This document shows positions 1,641 to 49,841 of a stretch of DNA of 64,000 nt, one piece after another (the first letter of the stretch is position 1; every line of letters begins with the position of its first letter). The translations under genes and the position numbers were made by a program. The DNA comes from Gammaproteobacteria bacterium (GTDB lineage: Bacteria; Pseudomonadota; Gammaproteobacteria; SURF-13), in assembly GCA_016195665.1 (NCBI GenBank), contig JACPZD010000024.1, forward strand, positions 23,997 to 87,996, read 5' to 3'. The notes under the pieces were generated by a model. The model was given only the letters and a program-made list of their open reading frames with translations, made no database searches and was not told where the DNA came from.

Positions 1641-3125
1641 TCAGCTTTTGAGCATACCGCGCAGTATCGCTCGGTACTGTTTGAGGGCGCGCTCCTGGGT
1701 GGTGAGCAAACTCTCGAAGCTGCGTTCGATGGCCGCGGTCACGACCTTATCCAGACTCTTGAGATCGGCAGGCGGTTTGGGCGTGTCGTCAAGGCCTTGG
1801 TGTTTGCCGCGCATGCCGCTCAAGATCTCGCCGAGGATGAGGTCTTCAATGGGACCCACCTGCGGTAGAAAATCGCCGTCATCGGGAATCTTCTCGAGCT
1901 TGAGACGAATATCCAGCGGGATGCGGTCAATAATGAAGCGGTAAATGGTGCATTGCGGAGCATAGCGGCCTAACACGTCGCGCGCCTGGAGGCCGAGATG
2001 AATCGGCTTGAGTTCCAGAACTTCCCATATCTTCGGGTGCCACAGGATGCCCCAGCACAAGGCATTCAACATGCAACTCTGCAACTTGGGCGGGGCGAGC
2101 CACACCGCGAGATTGAGGTAATAGGCCTCGATATATTTCAGTGCATTGAGTCCTTGCGCCGTTTGAGGGTAGCCCCATAGATTGATGTTGAAGAAGTGAT
2201 GCCAGGTGGAGTCGGTGACGATGCGGCCCAAGTCCACCCTATGCCCGTCATAGGCGGCGGCGACCGCCACGGTGCGGCCGACGTCGGCATCCGGCGACAG
2301 GATGCGCCCCCAGGCGATGAGTTCGGGCTTGGCCTGGAAGCCGTTTTTGCTGGGCCACTCGGCCGCCGGGAAGCTGCCCGGCAGAATCACCTCGCCTTCG
2401 TGCTGGTGATCGGGGAAGATTTTTATCGGCCCCCACTGGCTGCAAAACAACGGGTGAGGGTAACGCTTCCACCAACTATAGGACCACGGGAATCCCGCGG
2501 GATAGGTTTTCAGCGACAAGGGTTGCGGGGTGTCGTCGGACTGGTCATCGAATTGAAAACCGGGCGTCGGCCCTTCGCGCAGGGTGTTGTTCCAGAAGGG
2601 CTGAACGGCGTCGGGCGCCGGCCACTGGCGTATCTTGCCGGCGCGCGGGATCTGTTGGCCGATGGCCTGTCCCAGATTGGCGTGATCGCCGGTCATGAAG
2701 ATGCCGCCGCCCTGGTTCATGAAATTATTCAGCGCGGTGATTTCGGCGGCGGTCAATACATTGCCGGAACCTACTCCGAAGAACCAGATCTGGTCGTAGT
2801 TGGCGCTGATATTCAACTGGTCGAGGCGGCTGTTGGGCTGCGATCTCAGCTTGAAGGTCACGTCAAAATTGACCCAGTACCAGGGATCGGACTTCAGCAC
2901 CTGCTTGACCTTGCCGAGATCAAAAGCTGGCGTGCTGCCGGGCGTGAAGGGGTTGGGGAGCGGGTCGGTGAGTGTGACGCCGCTGTCGGAATAAAACAGA
3001 ATGCGCACCTTGCATGGCCTCGGCCGCCACGGCCAGTGTATATAGTCCTCGATTTGCCAACGCGCGCGCAGATCGAGATCGGCGGGGTGCAGTTCGGAAA
3101 CAAGATTCTTGGAGCGTTTAACCAT
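1641..3125 (-). CDS. hypothetical 494-aa protein; a segment (FFGVGSGN...[24 protein letters not shown]) resembles a ThuA/class-I glutamine-amidotransferase-like fold
   Basis: Long ORF with AGGAGG 8 nt upstream of the ATG at 3125; no confident family assignment from sequence alone. Confidence 0.55.
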
Positions 3126-3265
3126 AAGATCCTCCTCATTTCTTGAGCTTGTTGACTGAAGAGACCTCTGAAAAACTCAGGGCCTTGAAGACCTCTGCCG
3201 GGCGGTGATCCCGGCGGGGGGAATTACTACTGCCTTTCCATCCTACACCCAACTATCGGTGCTAG

Positions 3266-4471
3266 CTACCCTAGATAGACGCGAGTAAAAAAGGCATTGA
3301 GGTAGCGGGTTTCGGGGATGGCGGGGTGGACGGGGTGATCGGGGCCTTGCTGGCCCTGTTCGAGGATTTGCAGGTTGCGGTCTACATGACGGCTGGTCTG
3401 CAACAGCACGTCTTGCAGAGCGTTGGATTCAAGGTGGTAGGAACAGGAGGCTGAAATCAGAATGCCGTCCTTCGCCAACACTTGCATGGCCATTTGGTTG
3501 AGTTGGTGATAAGCCTGCAAGCCCTGCTTGAGGTCTTTTTTGCGTTTGATGAAGGCTGGCGGATCGAGTATCACGACATCGAATTTTTGGCGCTCGGCGC
3601 GCAGTGATTTGAGCGCGTCGAAGGCATCGGCCTGTATGCCCGTGACGCGCTCCGTGACGCCATTGAGCGCGGCATTGTGGCGGAGTTGAGCTAGGGCGCT
3701 CTGGGAGGAATCCACGCACAGCACCTCGCTCGCTCCCGCCGCTGCGGCCTGCACGCCCCAGCCACCGAGATAGCTGAAAACATCCAACACGCGCCGGTCT
3801 TTTACATAGTGCTGCATGCGTGCACGATTCATGCGGTGGTCGTAAAACCAGCCGGTTTTTTGTCCGGTCAATACCGGGACGTCGAACACTACGCCGTTTT
3901 CTTCCAGCCTGACCCACTCGGGGGTTTCACCCAGTACCGTTTCAACATACTTTGGCAAGCCTTCCAGAGCGCGACTGGAAGTATCGTTGCGCAGAACGAT
4001 GGCGCGGGGCTTGATGACTTTTTGCAGAGCGGCGACCACCTCTATTTTGACGCGCTCCATGCCCGCGGTGGTGAGTTGCACGACCAGTACATCGCCGTAG
4101 CGGTCCACCACCAGGCCCGGCAGGGCATCGCCCTCGCCGAACACCAGGCGATAATAAGGCTTGTCGAACAACCGTTCGCGCAGTGACAGTGCGATATTGA
4201 GGCGGTGCACCAGCAGCGACTGATCGAGCACGTAGTGCGGGTCACGGCTCACCAACCGCGCGCAGATGAGCGAGTGCGGATTGGCATAGCCGGTGCCGAG
4301 CACGGCGCCATTACTCGCCTCGATGCTGACAAGCTGGCCGGGTTCGAAACCCGTCAGCGGCGTGTGCGCGACGTCCACCTCGTTACTGAATACCCACAGA
4401 TGACCGGTGTGCAGGCGGCGCTCTTCTTTCTTTTTCAGACGCAACGGCGCGAGGGTTTTTGGAGTGCTCAT
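3266..4471 (-). CDS. rlmI: 23S rRNA m5C1962 methyltransferase, class I SAM-dependent (RlmI family)
   Basis: 401 aa; N-terminal PUA-like region (LRLKKKEERRLHTGHLWVF) and C-terminal methyltransferase fold (VLDVFSYLGGWG...DVVILDPP) collinear with E. coli RlmI. Confidence 0.8.
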   Translation of the reverse strand: MSTPKTLAPLRLKKKEERRLHTGHLWVFSNEVDVAHTPLTGFEPGQLVSIEASNGAVLGTGYANPHSLICARLVSRDPHYVLDQSLLVHRLNIALSLRERLFDKPYYRLVFGEGDALPGLVVDRYGDVLVVQLTTAGMERVKIEVVAALQKVIKPRAIVLRNDTSSRALEGLPKYVETVLGETPEWVRLEENGVVFDVPVLTGQKTGWFYDHRMNRARMQHYVKDRRVLDVFSYLGGWGVQAAAAGASEVLCVDSSQSALAQLRHNAALNGVTERVTGIQADAFDALKSLRAERQKFDVVILDPPAFIKRKKDLKQGLQAYHQLNQMAMQVLAKDGILISASCSYHLESNALQDVLLQTSRHVDRNLQILEQGQQGPDHPVHPAIPETRYLNAFFTRVYLG

Positions 4472-4494
4472 TTAAGTGATCTCTGAAAAATATA

Positions 4495-4582
4495 TCGCCA
4501 ACCGCCAAGACGCCAAGGTCGCCGAGAAAAAAGATTTGAATGGTAAGCAAGAAATCTTGGCGGTCTTGGCGCCTTGGCGGTT
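4495..4582. repeat. hairpin repeat family D (CCGCCAAGACGCCAAGG ... CTTGGCGCCTTGGCGG around an AT-rich loop), copy 1
   Basis: Long imperfect palindrome; a second copy at 33208..33288 has about 80 percent identity and the same architecture. Confidence 0.6.
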
Positions 4583-4602
4583 CAACATGACTCAGGATTT
4601 CC

Positions 4603-7651: not shown

Positions 7652-8627
7652 GTTGGGCAGGTCGTGAAAGCAATAGACTCAACGCACCGCCCAGCAGCGT
7701 GGTGGCCAGCAAGAATAAGTGCAGGTTGACAGCGGCCTTGAAGGCGGCCACGGCCGGTGCGCCGAACGGCAGTAAGGCCGCCACCACGCCCGCCTCGTAG
7801 GTGCCGGCGCCCGCGAAGGCGTGGATGGGCAGCACGCTGGTCACATCGCCGCCAATCACGCCGAGCCAGGCGGCGGCGAACGGGATCTCGATAAACAATC
7901 GCAACACCCAGACAAACACGCCCAGCTTGACGACCCAGTTGATGGCGGTCCACAGCCAGGCGCGCCAGAAGGCGCTGTGGCTGTATGGCAGGCTGGTTAA
8001 AATCTTGTGCAGCAGTCTGCGCGGACGGCCGCCCGGATGGGCGTTCATATAGTTGAGTAGCTTTGCATTAGCCAGAAACAGCAGATACGGCACGCTCAGC
8101 CATAGCAGGCACGCAGCGCCGGCATACGTCCAGGGCCGAAGAGTAATCCCCAGCGCGAGCAGCACCAGGGTGTGCAAGTCCAGCACCCGAAACCATAGCA
8201 GTGCGGGGGTGGAACGCATCAGCGGCACGTCGAAGTAGCGCTTCATGAGTATGGGGAAGGAAACCTCTCCGGTCCGCATCGGGAGCAGATTATTAAAAAA
8301 ATTATGCAGCAGCATGAGCTTGAGACAGGCCGCGAACGCCCCCCGCATTTCATCGCGGAAATAGTCATACAGACGCATGGCCCTGACCCAGTAAGTAAAA
8401 AACGTCAGTATAATAGCCAAGAATAATAGACTATAGGGCAAGGCCCGCCAGGGAGCGAGCAAATTCCGCCAACCGAAATAGAATTCGATCAGCGCCACGA
8501 AGGCGATGAAGAGAGCGATGCCTGTGAGATATGATAGCTTCACGAGGTAGTTTGGCGGGCTGGTTGGCGATGAGGGTGCTGACTCAGTGTAGGTGGCGCG
8601 AGCGCGCAGCGCAACCCTTTCTCCCAT
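7644..8627 (-). CDS. UPF0104 / lysyl-PG-synthase transmembrane-domain (flippase-like) membrane protein
   Basis: Polytopic membrane ORF (LSYLTGIALFIAFVALIEFYFGWRNL...). Start uncertain: alternatives are ATG at 8627 or GTG at 8541; the track ORF extends to 8687. Confidence 0.6.
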   Translation of the reverse strand: MGERVALRARATYTESAPSSPTSPPNYLVKLSYLTGIALFIAFVALIEFYFGWRNLLAPWRALPYSLLFLAIILTFFTYWVRAMRLYDYFRDEMRGAFAACLKLMLLHNFFNNLLPMRTGEVSFPILMKRYFDVPLMRSTPALLWFRVLDLHTLVLLALGITLRPWTYAGAACLLWLSVPYLLFLANAKLLNYMNAHPGGRPRRLLHKILTSLPYSHSAFWRAWLWTAINWVVKLGVFVWVLRLFIEIPFAAAWLGVIGGDVTSVLPIHAFAGAGTYEAGVVAALLPFGAPAVAAFKAAVNLHLFLLATTLLGGALSLLLSRPAQHG

Positions 8628-8657
8628 TCTACGAGGAAGATCATCAAGCAAAAACAA

Positions 8658-8726
8658 TTTACCGCAGAGGGCGCGGAGCTGAACCAAGTCTTTTTGAACT
8701 TATCTCTCCGCGCCCTCCGCGGTGAA
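8658..8726. repeat. hairpin repeat family B (TTCACCGCAGAGGGCGCGGAGGAG ... CTCCGCG.CCTC.GCGGTGAA), copy 1
   Basis: About 22-bp inverted arms around a 25-30-nt loop; four copies in the window (also 30788..30860, 42089..42158, 56494..56552). Confidence 0.7.
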
Positions 8727-11746: not shown

Positions 11747-11761
11747 AGCCCCCCATCACCT

Positions 11762-11782
11762 GTAGGGCCGGATTCATTCGGC
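11762..11782. repeat. REP-like hairpin family A (GTAGGGCCGAATTCATTCGGCC), copy 1
   Basis: GGCCGRAT / ATTCGGCC inverted repeat; three copies, all between convergent or divergent gene ends (also 13956..13980, 14935..14956). Confidence 0.6.
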
Positions 11783-11826
11783 CAATTCAGTTCATAGTTC
11801 ACCACACAATCAAAGGTTCCGCAAAT

Positions 11827-13950: not shown

Positions 13951-13955
13951 AAGTT

Positions 13956-13980
13956 GTAGGGCCGAATTCATTCGGCCTAC
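13956..13980. repeat. REP-like hairpin family A, copy 2
   Basis: GTAGGGCCGAATTCATTCGGCCTAC between the yyaL stop and the PfkB kinase stop (convergent). Confidence 0.6.
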
Positions 13981-13981
13981 T

Positions 13982-14914
13982 TTATAACGCGTAACCGAAA
14001 CTGTCCTTGAAGCGCGCCTCGAACTCGGCCTTTTCAAAGCGGTGATTTTGCGTGCCGTGCTGTTCGATCTTAATGGCGCCCATGAGCGCCGCGATGCGGC
14101 CGGTCGTGTCCCAATCCAGATCGTTCATCAAGCCGTACAAGAGACCAGCGCGGTAGGCGTCGCCGCAGCCGGTCGGATCGGCCAGGCGGCTGGGTTGGGC
14201 GACGGGGATGCCAAATGTTTTATCACCCGTGTAAATCGTTGAGCCTTTGGCGCCATGCGTCACAATCAGGGCTTGCATGGTGTGCATCAACTCGTCTATG
14301 GATTTGCCGGTGCGCTGCAGCACAAGTTGGAACTCATAGTCGTTGAAGGCCGCCCAGGTGGCCTGCTCCAAAAATTTCATCAGATCCGCTCCGTCGAACA
14401 TCGGCAGACCTTGACCGGGGTCAAAGACAAAAGGGATTCCCGTCTCGTGAAACTGCGCCGCGTGTTGAATCATTCCTTCGCGGCCATCCGGCGCGATGAT
14501 GCCGACCCTCACATCTTTTGCGTCCGTCACGCGGTTTTCATGGGCGTGGTTCATGGCGCCCGGATGAAATGCCGTGATCTGATTGTCGTCGAGGTCGGTG
14601 GTGATAAAGGCCTGCGCCGTAAAGGTGTCGGCGATCTCTTTGATGTGCTTCACGCCGACACCGCAGCGCAACAGCCATTCGCGGTAGGGCGTGAAGTCCT
14701 TTCCCACCGTGCCCATCGGCAACGCCTTGCCGCCCAACATGCTCAGATTGTAGGCGATGTTGCCCGCGCAGCCGCCGTACTCGCGGCGCAACTCCGGCAC
14801 CAGAAACGAAACGCTCAGGATATGCACCTGCTCCGGCAGGATGTGATTCTTGAAGCGGTCATGAAACACCATGATGGTGTCGTAGGCGAATGAACCGCAA
14901 ATGAGCGCTGCCAT
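13982..14914 (-). CDS. PfkB-family carbohydrate/nucleoside kinase
   Basis: Start taken at MAALICGSFAYD (the track ORF extends 20 codons further). GG and DTTGAGD-like motifs (PTGCGDAYRAG) typical of the ribokinase superfamily. Confidence 0.8.
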   Translation of the reverse strand: MAALICGSFAYDTIMVFHDRFKNHILPEQVHILSVSFLVPELRREYGGCAGNIAYNLSMLGGKALPMGTVGKDFTPYREWLLRCGVGVKHIKEIADTFTAQAFITTDLDDNQITAFHPGAMNHAHENRVTDAKDVRVGIIAPDGREGMIQHAAQFHETGIPFVFDPGQGLPMFDGADLMKFLEQATWAAFNDYEFQLVLQRTGKSIDELMHTMQALIVTHGAKGSTIYTGDKTFGIPVAQPSRLADPTGCGDAYRAGLLYGLMNDLDWDTTGRIAALMGAIKIEQHGTQNHRFEKAEFEARFKDSFGYAL

Positions 14915-14934
14915 GGAAATTCCTTCGGTCAGTG

Positions 14935-14956
14935 GTAGGGCCGAATTTATTCGGCC
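14935..14956. repeat. REP-like hairpin family A, copy 3
   Basis: GTAGGGCCGAATTTATTCGGCC between the kinase start and the dgkA stop. Confidence 0.6.
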
Positions 14957-14957
14957 T

Positions 14958-15332
14958 TCAATAAAACTTTTCAATGAAAATCACACCCCATATCACCAGG
15001 GCGTTGGTGAGCGTGAGCAACACCGCCGCCGAGGCCATGTCCTTGGCGCGGCCGGAAAGCGTGTGATGCTCGGTACCGATTCGATCTATCGCCGCCTCGA
15101 TGCTGGAGTTGATCACCTCCACGATCAGCACCAAAAACAGGCTGCCGAGCAGGAGGGCGCGTTCCATGGCGCCGCTTCCCAGCCATAAGGCGAGCGGGGC
15201 CATGATAAAAAACAGAATGATTTCGACACGAAACGCTGCCTCGTTGCGCCAAGTGGCGCGCAGTCCCGCAACGGAATAGTTAAAGGCCCGAACGAGGCGC
15301 TTGAATTCATTGGTTTGGTTGTGGTTGGCCAT
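14958..15332 (-). CDS. dgkA: diacylglycerol kinase
   Basis: Start at MANHNQTNEFKRLVRAFNYS...; three TM helices; ...SAIEAAIDRIG... DgkA signature. Confidence 0.85.
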   Translation of the reverse strand: MANHNQTNEFKRLVRAFNYSVAGLRATWRNEAAFRVEIILFFIMAPLALWLGSGAMERALLLGSLFLVLIVEVINSSIEAAIDRIGTEHHTLSGRAKDMASAAVLLTLTNALVIWGVIFIEKFY

Positions 15333-22539: not shown

Positions 22540-22586
22540 TAAAAAAGGGCGATGCGTGTACGACTGCTCGCACACCCATCGCCCCT
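22540..22586 (-). terminator. intrinsic terminator-type expression platform of the glycine riboswitch
   Basis: Minus strand reads GGGCGATGGGTGTGCGAGCAGTCGTACACGCATCGCCC followed by TTTTTTATT, between the aptamers and the gcvT start. Confidence 0.5.
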
Positions 22587-22589
22587 CTG

Positions 22590-22765
22590 TCCTGTTACCT
22601 GAGAGTTTTATCCCCTTCGGTGCCCGGCAACACACATCGAGTCGTATCGCCGGATCTCTCCAGAATTTATATTACCCTGCGGTCCTTTTGCCTGAGCGTT
22701 TCCGGGCGGTTGCGCCTTCGGCGCCCCGTCATGTTTTTCTATGACGGGGGCTCTCCCACAGGGTA
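22590..22765 (-). ncRNA. tandem glycine riboswitch (two aptamers) in the gcvT leader
   Basis: Minus strand: aptamer 1 GGGAGAGCCCC...GGCGCCGAAGGCGCAACC...CTCAGGCAAAAGGACCGCAG; aptamer 2 CTGGAGAGATCC...GCACCGAAGGGGATAA...CTCTCAGGTAACAGGACAG; both match the glycine riboswitch consensus. Confidence 0.85.
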
Positions 22766-22818
22766 AACATCAGCGCCTACTATACTATGGAGGGCCAAGC
22801 TCTTGCCAGTGTAAAAAC

Positions 22819-25785: not shown

Positions 25786-25995
25786 AGGATGTACTAGTGT
25801 CGCGGGAGGCAGAGGATGCCGGGAGCGACCGCCCACGACATTCGCACTTTCGTCGCTCCCGCTATCCTGCTTCGCTCGAAAGCCCAGGGTTCGCCTTCCT
25901 GGCGAACCCGCTCGACGAGATTCGTCTCGCCCCTATGCAGCCGTCGCTCCTGCGCATCCGTGCGCCCGCGACATTCGCACTTCCCTGTGCAGCAA
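25786..25995. repeat. degenerate copy of repeat family F (shares internal units with the MITE-like elements)
   Basis: CGTCGCTCCTGCGCATCCGTGCGCCCGCGACATTCGCACTTCCCTGTGCAGCA matches the internal units of the element at 55599..55850. GTACTAGTGTCGCGGGAGGCAG..GCCGGGAGCGAC also occurs at 13707..13741. Confidence 0.5.
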
Positions 25996-26002
25996 AACAA
26001 AA

Positions 26003-26384: not shown

Positions 26385-26513
26385 TACTTTCTCCTTAAAA
26401 TGCTGTTTAAATTTAAATTAAAATCAGGGTTTGCTCTCAGGCGATGCCGGCAGCAACTGACTGATTCATTATTATCTCACGATCTTGACCCTAAAGATCA
26501 AGTGGCCAATAGA

Positions 26514-26670
26514 TTGTTGAAAAAGGCCATCCATGGCCTTTTTCAACAACGAAAAGCAAAAAGTGTGATTTTTACTTTTCTTCATTTTCCAAGCATAAAA
26601 AACCGTGCTTGAAAATGCCGGGCCCTCCATGGCCCGACTAGCGGCCTGTTTTTCAACAGGCCGCTAGTCG
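26514..26670. repeat. structured repeat family E (about 155 nt, three hairpins including the perfect palindrome TGTTGAAAAAGGCCATCCATGGCCTTTTTCAACA), copy 1
   Basis: Second copy at 36293..36446 in the same orientation, about 80 percent identity, also in a minus-strand intergenic region. Confidence 0.6.
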
Positions 26671-29919: not shown

Positions 29920-29995
29920 GGCCAGGTAGCTCAGTTGGTAGAGCAGGGGACTGAAAATCCCCGTGTCGGCGGTTCGATTCCGTCCCTGGCCACCA
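29920..29995 (+). tRNA. tRNA-Phe (anticodon GAA)
   Basis: GGCCAGGTAGCTCAGTTGGTAGAGCAGGGGACTGAAAATCCCCGTGTCGGCGGTTCGATTCCGTCCCTGGCCACCA: 7-bp acceptor stem, anticodon loop CTGAAAA, TPsiC GGTTCGATTCC, encoded CCA. Confidence 0.95.
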
Positions 29996-30767: not shown

Positions 30768-30787
30768 CGGGGCGACCACAGAGAACA

Positions 30788-30860
30788 AATTTCACCGCAG
30801 AGGGCGCGGAGGAGAAATAAGTTATTTGATCGCAGTTCTCTGTGTCCTCCGCGGTGAAAC
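30788..30860. repeat. hairpin repeat family B, copy 2
   Basis: TTCACCGCAGAGGGCGCGGAGGAG...CTGTGTCCTCCGCGGTGAA. Confidence 0.7.
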
Positions 30861-36211: not shown

Positions 36212-36292
36212 AGTGCCCCCGTGGTGAGTGGTTTAGGAGGCCACTCTGACACGGGAGTTAGGTTATGTCTAGCTTAGGACGCCCTAACAGGA

Positions 36293-36446
36293 TGTTGAAA
36301 AAAGGCCATCCATGGCCTTTTTTCAACTCACAAAGCAAAAAACGCGGTTTTTGCTTTGCTCCATTTTTCAAGCACATAAACCGTGCTTGAAAAATGGCGG
36401 CGCATCCATGCGCCGCACGCAGACTGTTTTTCAACAGCCTGCTAAG
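36293..36446. repeat. structured repeat family E, copy 2
   Basis: TGTTGAAAAAAGGCCATCCATGGCCTTTTTTCAAC ... TTTTTCAAGCACATAAACCGTGCTTGAAAAA ... GGCGCATCCATGCGCC ... CTGTTTTTCAACAG, between the gspN stop and the Yip1 start. Confidence 0.6.
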
Positions 36447-42054: not shown

Positions 42055-42088
42055 AAATAGCTCCCCTGTGTCCCTTGTGCTGAAAAAG

Positions 42089-42158
42089 CTTCACCACGGA
42101 GGGCGCGGAGGAGAAACAAACCCTTCTTGAGGGTATTCCTCTGCGTCCTCTGCGGTAA
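42089..42158. repeat. hairpin repeat family B, copy 3
   Basis: TTCACCACGGAGGGCGCGGAGGAGAAA...CCTCTGCGTCCTCTGCGGTAAA, just upstream of gspG. Confidence 0.7.
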
Positions 42159-42196
42159 ATTATTTATGGATAAGCTCTTAGCATATATCTTCATGT

Positions 42197-48147: not shown

Positions 48148-48337
48148 TCTAACGCGTGCCTAAAGGTCTGATTAAGATAATAATTGTTGTGGTAAGACGA
48201 TGAATTATAACATAGTGCCGCGCTGGATCCGGCGTATACAGAACAACGTGCTAGGGTGAGAAGACTGGCCTATGGGAAAAACTATAGCAGAACTGCGCCT
48301 AAAGATAGCCTAGTTATCAGTCCGATTCCACCCCTAT

Positions 48338-48438
48338 ACATGAACCTGCGGCCGAAGGCCGCACCGACTCTCCTTCTCCCCTGGCGGGAGAAGGTGGCCC
48401 GAAGGGCCGGATGAGGGAGAAACCGCCCGGTTCATGGG
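48338..48438. repeat. composite REP-like element with flanking inverted repeats CATGAACC / GGTTCATG and three internal palindromes
   Basis: Internal palindromes GCGGCCGAAGGCCGC, CTTCTCCCCTGGCGGGAGAAG, GGCCCGAAGGGCC. A related hairpin CCCTTCTCCCTGGGGGAGAAGGG occurs at about 29855..29880. Confidence 0.5.
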
Positions 48439-48555
48439 CTCAATTCGGGCGCAAAATCGGCGACGGCGGTCTCTCTGAGATGCAGCGGGCTTGCATTGCT
48501 TAACGATGACGCACAGAGTTCTCTCCCGTACAGCCTGCATAACCTGAGCATAAGC

Positions 48556-49311: not shown

Positions 49312-49427
49312 CGCCATAAATCTACTGCGCGTCTTTGATGCGGGTGCGTGCGGTGCTCGGAATCCTCATGTACTTCTATGTACACTCCGGTTCCTGCGCT
49401 CCGCCGCCCCCGCCTGAAACCCGCTCG

Positions 49428-49841
49428 CTACGATTTCTGTCGCCCAGATTTGACGCCCTCCGCGGACTCGTCCGCCTTGCTCATCAACAGATCAAAATTA
49501 CGATACGCGTATTTTGGATCGGCACCGACGTTTTCAATGCCCTCGGACGTTAGATCCGCGCCATAGTTAAATGCTCGAAAATACAATTGGGAATGATCCT
49601 TGGCGGATACCAGGCGCGCGCTCACCCTCACCCACGGCTTATAGTCGAATGAGTTTGCGGTAGAGAGGTAACCGACGGCGACATACCACACGTCCAGTAT
49701 TGCGTCGGCATCGGTTCGGATGGCTGAATAGTCAGCCTGATTTTCATTTTTTATCGCCGGCCGCTGGTCGGAAAGATAAACGATCTCGTAATTCTGCTTC
49801 TTTAACTCACGCTGTAGCGCTTGGGCAATTTCGGCGCCCAT
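49428..49841 (-). CDS. hypothetical protein (137 aa, no signal peptide; possibly a gene remnant) in the low-GC islet
   Basis: Only ORF in this stretch with plausible codon usage; a stop codon lies immediately upstream of the ATG. Confidence 0.35.
   Translation of the reverse strand: MGAEIAQALQRELKKQNYEIVYLSDQRPAIKNENQADYSAIRTDADAILDVWYVAVGYLSTANSFDYKPWVRVSARLVSAKDHSQLYFRAFNYGADLTSEGIENVGADPKYAYRNFDLLMSKADESAEGVKSGRQKS

Follow-up and report, generated by a model that had tools for sequence, protein, structure and literature searches.

Two related elements between minus-strand genes

The window, by which we mean the whole 64,000-nucleotide (64 kb) stretch of DNA analysed here, contains two copies of a non-coding element without coding capacity, which we call family E, and each of them lies between two minus-strand genes. 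Copy A has the stop codon of uvrD (26732) and the start codon of a cytochrome c gene (26384) on either side, and copy B the stop codon of the T2SS gene gspN (36442-36444) and the start codon of the Yip1 gene (36211). This gene context agrees with the original prediction, which had placed two paralogous, look-alike elements of about 80% identity on the same strand, each between a minus-strand stop and the next minus-strand start, upstream of the cytochrome c and Yip1 genes. The two elements were found at the expected positions and on the same strand, pairwise alignment gave 82% column identity (short flanks included), and their paralogy holds.

The boundaries of the element were refined from the family alignment, which gave 154 bp for each copy (A, 26510-26663; B, 36288-36441). 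Copy A runs on the plus strand from TIR to TIR, TAGATTGTTGAAAAA ... TTTTTCAACAGGCCG (nhmmer E = 1.7e-43), with the tetranucleotide CCAA on its left (26506-26509, plus strand), a degenerate YTAR form as judged from the family alignment, and CTAG on its right (26664-26667, plus strand). Copy B, also on the plus strand, runs from CAGGATGTTGAAAAA to TTTTTCAACAGCCTG (nhmmer E = 1.9e-54) and is bracketed by a CTAA target-site duplication (36284-36287 on the left and 36442-36445 on the right, both plus strand), whose right repeat contains the gspN stop codon, TAG on the minus strand.

Folding gave five consecutive hairpins per copy, with z-scores of -8.9 to -11.1 and equally good folds on either strand. 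In copy A, HP1 (26514-26549, plus strand) is a perfect palindrome of 17 bp with a GGCC core, an ATCCAT loop and A5/T5 arms, and it takes in the core of the left TIR; it looks like a bidirectional terminator. It is followed on the same strand by HP2 (26551-26580; GAAAAGCAAAAA / TTTTTACTTTTC around a variable loop), by HP3 (26583-26617; CATTTTCCAAGCA / TGCTTGAAAATG), the most conserved hairpin of the family, and by HP4 (26619-26636), whose GC stem CGGGCC / GGCCCG carries the loop CTCCAT; among copies this stem covaries and the TCC of its loop is conserved. HP5 (26638-26667, plus strand) is the right-TIR hairpin, CTAGCGGCCTGTT-TTTC-AACAGGCCGCTAG, and extends into the flanking CTAG. The hairpins of copy B lie at 36294-36327 (HP1), 36331-36358 (HP2), 36361-36397 (HP3), 36398-36415 (HP4) and 36419-36442 (HP5). 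The conserved hairpins that had been anticipated are present, but there are five per copy and not three.

The perfect 16-bp palindrome TGTTGAAAAAGGCCAT-CC-ATGGCCTTTTTCAACA described earlier was recovered at 26515-26548, as was the recurring TTGAAAA motif: 9 of the 21 TTGAAAA/TTTTCAA sites of the window fall inside copies A and B. GTTGAAAAA/TTTTTCAAC occurs six times in the window, each time within one of the two copies, and TGTTGAAAAA, with at most one mismatch, matches the window nine times against 2.25 expected, a number that was reached in none of 100 shuffles. The window also has a degenerate solo right end on the minus strand (1565-1613; nhmmer E = 1.9e-4, model positions 118-166), an HP5-like sequence, CAGGCTGTTATTCGACTGCCTGCTAG, that lies in a spacer after a terminator hairpin.

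Distribution of family E

The search for further copies that the original prediction had recommended led to the identification of about 40 further copies or fragments, spread over three metagenomes and seven MAGs of uncultured Gammaproteobacteria. An exact-pattern scan of GTDB species genomes gave 12 true copies in seven MAGs named 'Gammaproteobacteria bacterium' with 55-64% GC, metagenome contigs scanned for the HP3 hairpin yielded 19 loci, 11 of them in a single sample, and a nhmmer profile built from the copies added others in the flanks, some complete, some partial and some rearranged. IMG/VR scanned with a 17-mer returned four chance matches only, and blastn against plasmids left family E unmatched.

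When the proteins flanking the copies in the window were compared by tblastn with loci L001-L023 no matches were obtained, indicating that the copies there are not orthologous and occupy unrelated positions. The neighbours of the copies are unrelated genes and all settings are represented: tandem with the GGA strand (6-7), tandem with the TCC strand (5), convergent (~10) and divergent (~7), with no orientation bias relative to genes. Among 24 full-length, non-orthologous aligned copies, identity was 87.5% within a source versus 85.5% between sources, and no pair was more than 95% identical. These values indicate that the family is old, and they show no sign of recent transposition.

Ends and flanking duplications

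In alignments of 12 and of 24 copies the homology starts and stops abruptly at the TIRs. The left end reads YTAR followed by CAGGNTGTTGAAAAA and the right end TTTTTCAACAGCCTG followed by YTAR. The 15-nt TIRs, CAGGNTGTTGAAAAA on the left against CAGGCTGTTGAAAAA as the reverse complement of the right end, are present in nearly all copies, and the family alignments revealed no conserved promoter outside either end. The 4-nt flanks are of the YTAR type (CTAA, CTAG, TTAG, TTAA and CTGA were recorded), and of 28 independent copies 14 have the same tetranucleotide on the left and on the right, where shuffling gave 6.9 (P = 3e-5). Among the 14 are CTAA/CTAA, which is non-palindromic, and CTGA/CTGA and TTAG/TTAG, which are off-consensus; such pairs could arise neither from part of an inverted repeat nor from an end encoded by the element. 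The duplication is imperfect in half of the copies and the right repeat (CTAA in 18 of 28) is more uniform than the left, so that part of it may belong to the element.

Other assignments of the ends were discarded. An IS630-type TA duplication does not account for the flanks, in which positions 1 and 3 covary too (TTAG/TTAG, CTGA/CTGA), and an 8-9-bp duplication proposed by the aligner at copy A was dropped because, throughout the family, the bases that follow the right YTAR bear no relation to the left end. Integron attC sites have core sites, 5'-RYYYAAC ... GTTRRRY-3', that are paired across an imperfect palindrome; HP1 has the opposite polarity (5'-GTTGAAA ... TTTCAAC-3'), with each core one position off the consensus, and is not such a site.

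A 4-bp target duplication with the motif YTAR is the signature of IS5 (PMC5009759). We consider that family E is probably a mobile, MITE-type, non-autonomous repeat of an uncultured gammaproteobacterial lineage. It would be moved in trans, now or formerly, by an IS5-type DDE transposase, which would make a staggered cut at YTAR and leave YTAR duplicated; we put forward this identity of the partner enzyme tentatively. A search of about 309 kb of sequence that carries the family gave no autonomous element with the same TIRs placed 0.8-2 kb apart, and no transposase partner was found in this sequence or in plasmids.

Position relative to stop codons

Of 30 copies, about 14 have a long, high-GC3 open reading frame whose stop codon occupies positions 2-4 of the duplication. 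Among the non-disruptive YTAR sites of the window, stop-codon sites account for 15 of 90; the enrichment is about threefold (binomial P = 1.3e-4). Insertions would survive mostly just past stop codons, because a pyrimidine followed by TAA or TAG makes a YTAR site at which an insertion is harmless. The enrichment could reflect selection, such insertions being harmless or useful as terminators, but it could also reflect targeting, which is equally compatible with the data.

Gain, loss and decay among relatives

We compared the two loci with those of relatives whose UvrD is 97% (L047), 93% (L048/L049), 89% (L050) and 77% (L051) identical to that of the window; the exact sequence of the window's own UvrD returned no record. 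The spacer between uvrD and the cytochrome c gene holds the element in the window (347 nt) and in L047 (346 nt) and is empty, at 183-199 nt, in L048/L049, L050 and L051. In L048 the copy A junction is empty but for one TTAG, at the position of the left flank (CTAA on the plus strand of the window); as the filled and empty spacers have diverged by ~10%, this junction is not fixable to the nucleotide. In L047, the 97% relative, copy B has lost 80 nt internally, and with them HP4, HP3 and half of HP2, and in L050, the 89% relative, only a remnant of HP5 is left, at the gspN stop codon. Copy B is older than copy A.

L050 also has a variant of the element, flanked by CTAG/CTAG, between a tRNA and a PhyH gene, where the window and L047 have none. 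Locus L036, 91% identical to the window over 43.7-48.8 kb, contains a partial copy at a place where the sequence of the window is unrelated. Mosaic variants were found with an extra two-hairpin module between HP1 and HP2, with an insertion in the HP4 loop, or with hairpins missing. Copies of family E decay through internal deletion and through the swapping of hairpin modules.

The stretch in which L036 and the window differ (window 48217-48535, L036 236-400) is a variable spacer that begins after ...AACATAG. On the side of the window it consists of about 320 nt of other repeat-like sequence, and on the side of L036 of a partial E copy (HP5-HP3) and an unrelated hairpin, making it an insertion hot spot.

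Conservation of the hairpin stems

Across 24 copies, 95.8% of the cells of the stem alignment pair, compared with 36-49% in slid controls. Compensatory double changes occur in 18 of 58 pairs versus 5.7 +/- 1.6 in column shuffles, and 18 was reached in none of 500 of these. Paired columns are 94% conserved and unpaired columns 83%, and both the stems (94%) and the TCC triplets of the loops are better kept than the other loops (83%). This conservation of stems and TCC is unpredicted by a purely selfish, decaying repeat. Mismatches within the stems are balanced between G.T (24) and A.C (30), indicating that the covariation singles out the RNA of neither strand. The compensatory conservation asserted in the original prediction, and its view that the element is more than a simple REP, were therefore borne out, and so was the covariation that it had offered as a test for RNA, yet covariation among repeat copies is insufficient to establish an RNA gene.

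The stems may have been kept because selection favours a hairpin that works at gene ends in either orientation, or by self-correction of quasi-palindromes through template switching, which would yield paired changes without selection. We propose that these two processes, which are not exclusive, would leave the stems still paired in old, diverged copies. Termination or protection of 3' ends is known for REP/BIME, ERIC and Correia elements, and the five-hairpin stack of family E would act in either orientation as a putative terminator or 3'-end protector. HP1 consists of an A-tract, a GC stem and a T-tract. A simple scan called HP2 and HP4 of copy B terminator-like and did not flag HP1, and a scan for promoter-like sites found none inside copies A and B. 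Family E probably serves secondarily as a putative orientation-independent terminator or 3'-end hairpin stack.

Conserved loops and alternative explanations

The loops of HP1 and HP4 both read R-TCC-N-T, with a TCC that is 92-100% conserved and an N that, at 42-67%, is the least conserved column of the element. The reverse strand thus carries two ANGGA loops per 154-nt element, which are kept in 22-23 of 24 copies. HP1, HP4 and the extra two-hairpin module, which occurs in the variants and in a second MITE family (see below), all keep a CA-N-GGA-UG loop on one strand above covarying stems. On the strand opposite to TCC, CA-N-GGA-UG is the CsrA/RsmE hairpin motif. The conserved loops could equally be sites of recognition by a protein at the DNA level.

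The original prediction had explained the structure of copies A and B by a multi-copy sRNA or a structured 5' leader. Trans-acting sRNA paralogues, or a 5' leader of the cytochrome c and Yip1 genes, would agree with a strong structure that covaries and with the intergenic position upstream of minus-strand genes in the window, but the element has sharp ends beyond which homology does not continue, no conserved promoter and no promoter-like site within the copies. Its downstream genes vary from locus to locus and its orientation is random, the cytochrome c orthologues of three relatives have no upstream element, and the copy upstream of Yip1 is without HP3, HP4 and half of HP2 in the 97% relative. 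The Rfam scan that had been suggested found nothing at gathering thresholds at the locus of the copies, which are not members of any Rfam family. An sRNA or leader is therefore very improbable. Another RNA-level explanation is that the minus strand constitutes a putative CsrA/RsmA-binding RNA module of the RsmW type, possibly as an added function of a mobile element, so that copies transcribed as part of a 3' or a 5' UTR would titrate CsrA or bring their neighbours under CsrA control. The A-N-GGA pattern of the HP1 and HP4 loops on the reverse strand is in favour of it, and two more TCC-loop hairpins occur in variants, but an element of 154 nt has no more than two GGA loops. The stems covary about fixed loops, although the wobble pairs have no strand asymmetry, and the GGA strand is co-directional with the flanking genes for both copies of the window, whereas over the family UCC occurs in the neighbouring mRNA about as often as GGA. 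The minus strand of copy B matches the whole RsmW model (RF02809), namely a GGA-loop hairpin, two hairpins and a long terminal GGA-loop hairpin, with 41.3 bits (E = 7.5e-6 in a small search), which is below the gathering score of 52, and at relaxed thresholds copy A, 13 other loci and L007 alone do not match. Membership of RsmW (RF02809, clan CL00106) was thus rejected, being sub-threshold for copy B and not reproduced by other copies. In copy B, and not in copy A or the further family members searched, HP1 also resembles the hairpin of TD-2 (RF03162), with a UGAAAA stem and an ANGGAU loop, again below the gathering score (37.6 vs 48.7); this match is found on both strands and so reflects the palindrome and not GGA. 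RsmW itself is reported to derive from a 3' UTR (PMC4950607). The absence of a csrA open reading frame from the sequence searched is uninformative. We regard it as doubtful that the minus strand is such a module, and equally doubtful that the element is a mobile carrier of putative CsrA/RsmA-binding hairpins. If it were, insertion at stop codons would carry CsrA sites into the UTRs of genes, 3' as well as 5', and this would rewire a post-transcriptional regulon or turn the copies into a dispersed sponge. If the TCC/GGA loops proved to bind a protein, transposition would be linked to post-transcriptional control.

A further alternative keeps mobility and changes the enzyme: family E would be REP/BIME-like or a PATE, a palindromic mosaic that a tyrosine HUH transposase (RAYT or IS200/IS605 TnpA) moves in the form of single-stranded hairpins and inserts 3' of a fixed CTAR without true duplication, the conserved hairpin loops being the recognition sites of the protein. 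This would suit a modular mosaic of hairpins that are gained and lost, loop triplets that are conserved above covarying stems, and copies that are old and stable like REPs. The right tetranucleotide is indeed nearly constant (CTAA in 18 of 28), but left and right tetranucleotides covary (CTGA/CTGA, TTAG/TTAG), unlike an element-encoded right end, and the 15-nt TIRs are clear. Although the genome also contains a REP family of the classical GTAG type (family D10), family E is without a GTAG-like 5' tetranucleotide, no RAYT or TnpA gene adjoins any copy, and HP1 differs from HP5, unlike the repeated subterminal hairpin of IS200/IS605 ends. We consider movement by an HUH enzyme unlikely. Membership of the RAYT-associated REP/BIME elements was rejected on the lack of GTAG and the presence of TIRs and flanking duplications.

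We therefore retain the view that family E is a MITE-type repeat. As such it would be a clean case of a MITE that settles on stop codons by virtue of its YTAR target, and it would supply hairpin stacks to the ends of genes in an uncultured lineage of Gammaproteobacteria about which little is known. For annotation this means that intergenic blocks of this kind, together with several sister families, should be masked as mobile repeats and not be called as sRNA genes.

Other repeats and RNA features

The window contains a second MITE-like family, with the TIR GGGCGCCNTCTAAAAAT, at 54150-54290 and 55598-55856. The copy at 54150-54290 is a near-perfect hairpin of 150 nt (-79 kcal/mol) that is 93-95% identical to the unlinked loci L039 and L032, and the copy at 55598-55856 has the same GGGCGCCNTCTAAAAAT ends enclosing two tandem D modules with TCC loops. 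The D module consists of a pair of short GC hairpins, GCGCATCCGTGCGC and GCACTTCCCTGTGC, that have TCC loops, with GGA on the minus strand. It occurs in the window at 25937-26000, 55653-55724 and 55768-55819, and inside E copies of L008 (2770-2830), L028, L035 and L030, that is free downstream of the cytochrome c gene, as part of another MITE, or lodged between HP1 and HP2. An Rfam search of the GGA-rich block 55500-55950 returned nothing. In L008 (2668-3488; also in L030 and L031) a 121-aa acidic open reading frame (2887-3252) lies between two inverted E copies, one with a D module and the other with an 80-nt insertion in the HP4 loop, in a layout like that of a composite transposon.

Just past the cytochrome c gene, 112 nt of the window (25830-25941) are 95.5% identical to positions 8507-8617 of an unlinked metagenome locus, L045. 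This stretch includes a hairpin, GGGTTCGCC-TTCC-TGGCGAACCC, and probably represents a further family of repeats. A 110-nt repeat with a long GC-rich hairpin (GGCGCCAAGACCGCCAAG...) is found at 4481-4590 and matches L032 and L028 at 86-89%. A classical REP-like family, GTAGGGCCGAATTCATTCGGCCTAC, with a 5' GTAG, has copies at 11758-11794, 13952-13988 and 14931-14967, which suggests a RAYT-type system in the same genome. Families D2/D5 comprise a palindromic repeat of ~75 nt, CACCGCAGAGGGCGCGGAG ... CTCCGCGCCCTCCGCGGTGAA, with four copies (8652-8726, 30785-30858, 42084-42159 and 56488-56553).

At gathering level, Rfam identified a tandem glycine riboswitch at 22577-22768 on the minus strand, upstream of gcvT-gcvH-gcvP as judged from synteny with L047, a tRNA at 29920-29992 on the plus strand, and the Xanthomonas sRNA sX9 at 49368-49441 on the plus strand (48.3 bits vs 44). 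In L011 a sub-threshold match to the cspA thermoregulator (3531-3843; 51.3 bits vs 78, E = 4e-10) lies about 1 kb from an E copy.

Comparison with known repeat families

Like the pneumococcal BOX elements and the BIMEs of E. coli, family E is composed of short hairpin modules that differ in number and order from copy to copy, and it is likewise located at gene ends, independent of orientation and old. BIMEs and REPs are linked to RAYT and have neither TIRs nor target duplications, both of which are present in family E, and the GTAG motif is missing from family E. TD-1 and TD-2 are multi-copy hairpin repeats of one genome whose role is unknown (PMC1950547).

With IS5 (IS5 family, IS5 group) and the MITEs derived from it, family E shares the 4-bp YTAR duplication (PMC5009759). 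It also shares the bias of surviving insertions towards non-coding sequence; no transposase gene was found in the family E sequence searched. The TIR CAGGNTGTTGAAAAA is unlike the ends of IS5 (GGAAGGTGCGAATAAG) and loosely like the end of IS903 (GGCTTTGTTGAATAAATC). IS903 makes 9-bp duplications.

Correia elements (CREE/NEMIS) of Neisseria, the enterobacterial ERIC/IRU and the pneumococcal RUP are non-coding MITEs of 100-160 bp with TIRs and a short duplication, present as tens of dispersed, mainly intergenic copies with internal insertion and deletion variants. When transcribed they form stable hairpins that can end or stabilise neighbouring transcripts. Family E resembles them in size, lack of coding capacity, TIRs, duplication, dispersed copies and hairpins, and has no sequence similarity to them. 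They duplicate TA and fold mainly into one long hairpin formed by the two ends, whereas family E duplicates four bases (YTAR) and forms a chain of five local hairpins. Unlike them, it has two conserved TCC loops, and about half of its copies lie exactly on a stop codon. Family E is probably a bacterial MITE with an IS5-like target duplication, and as such a family not described before that belongs to a well-known kind of repeat.
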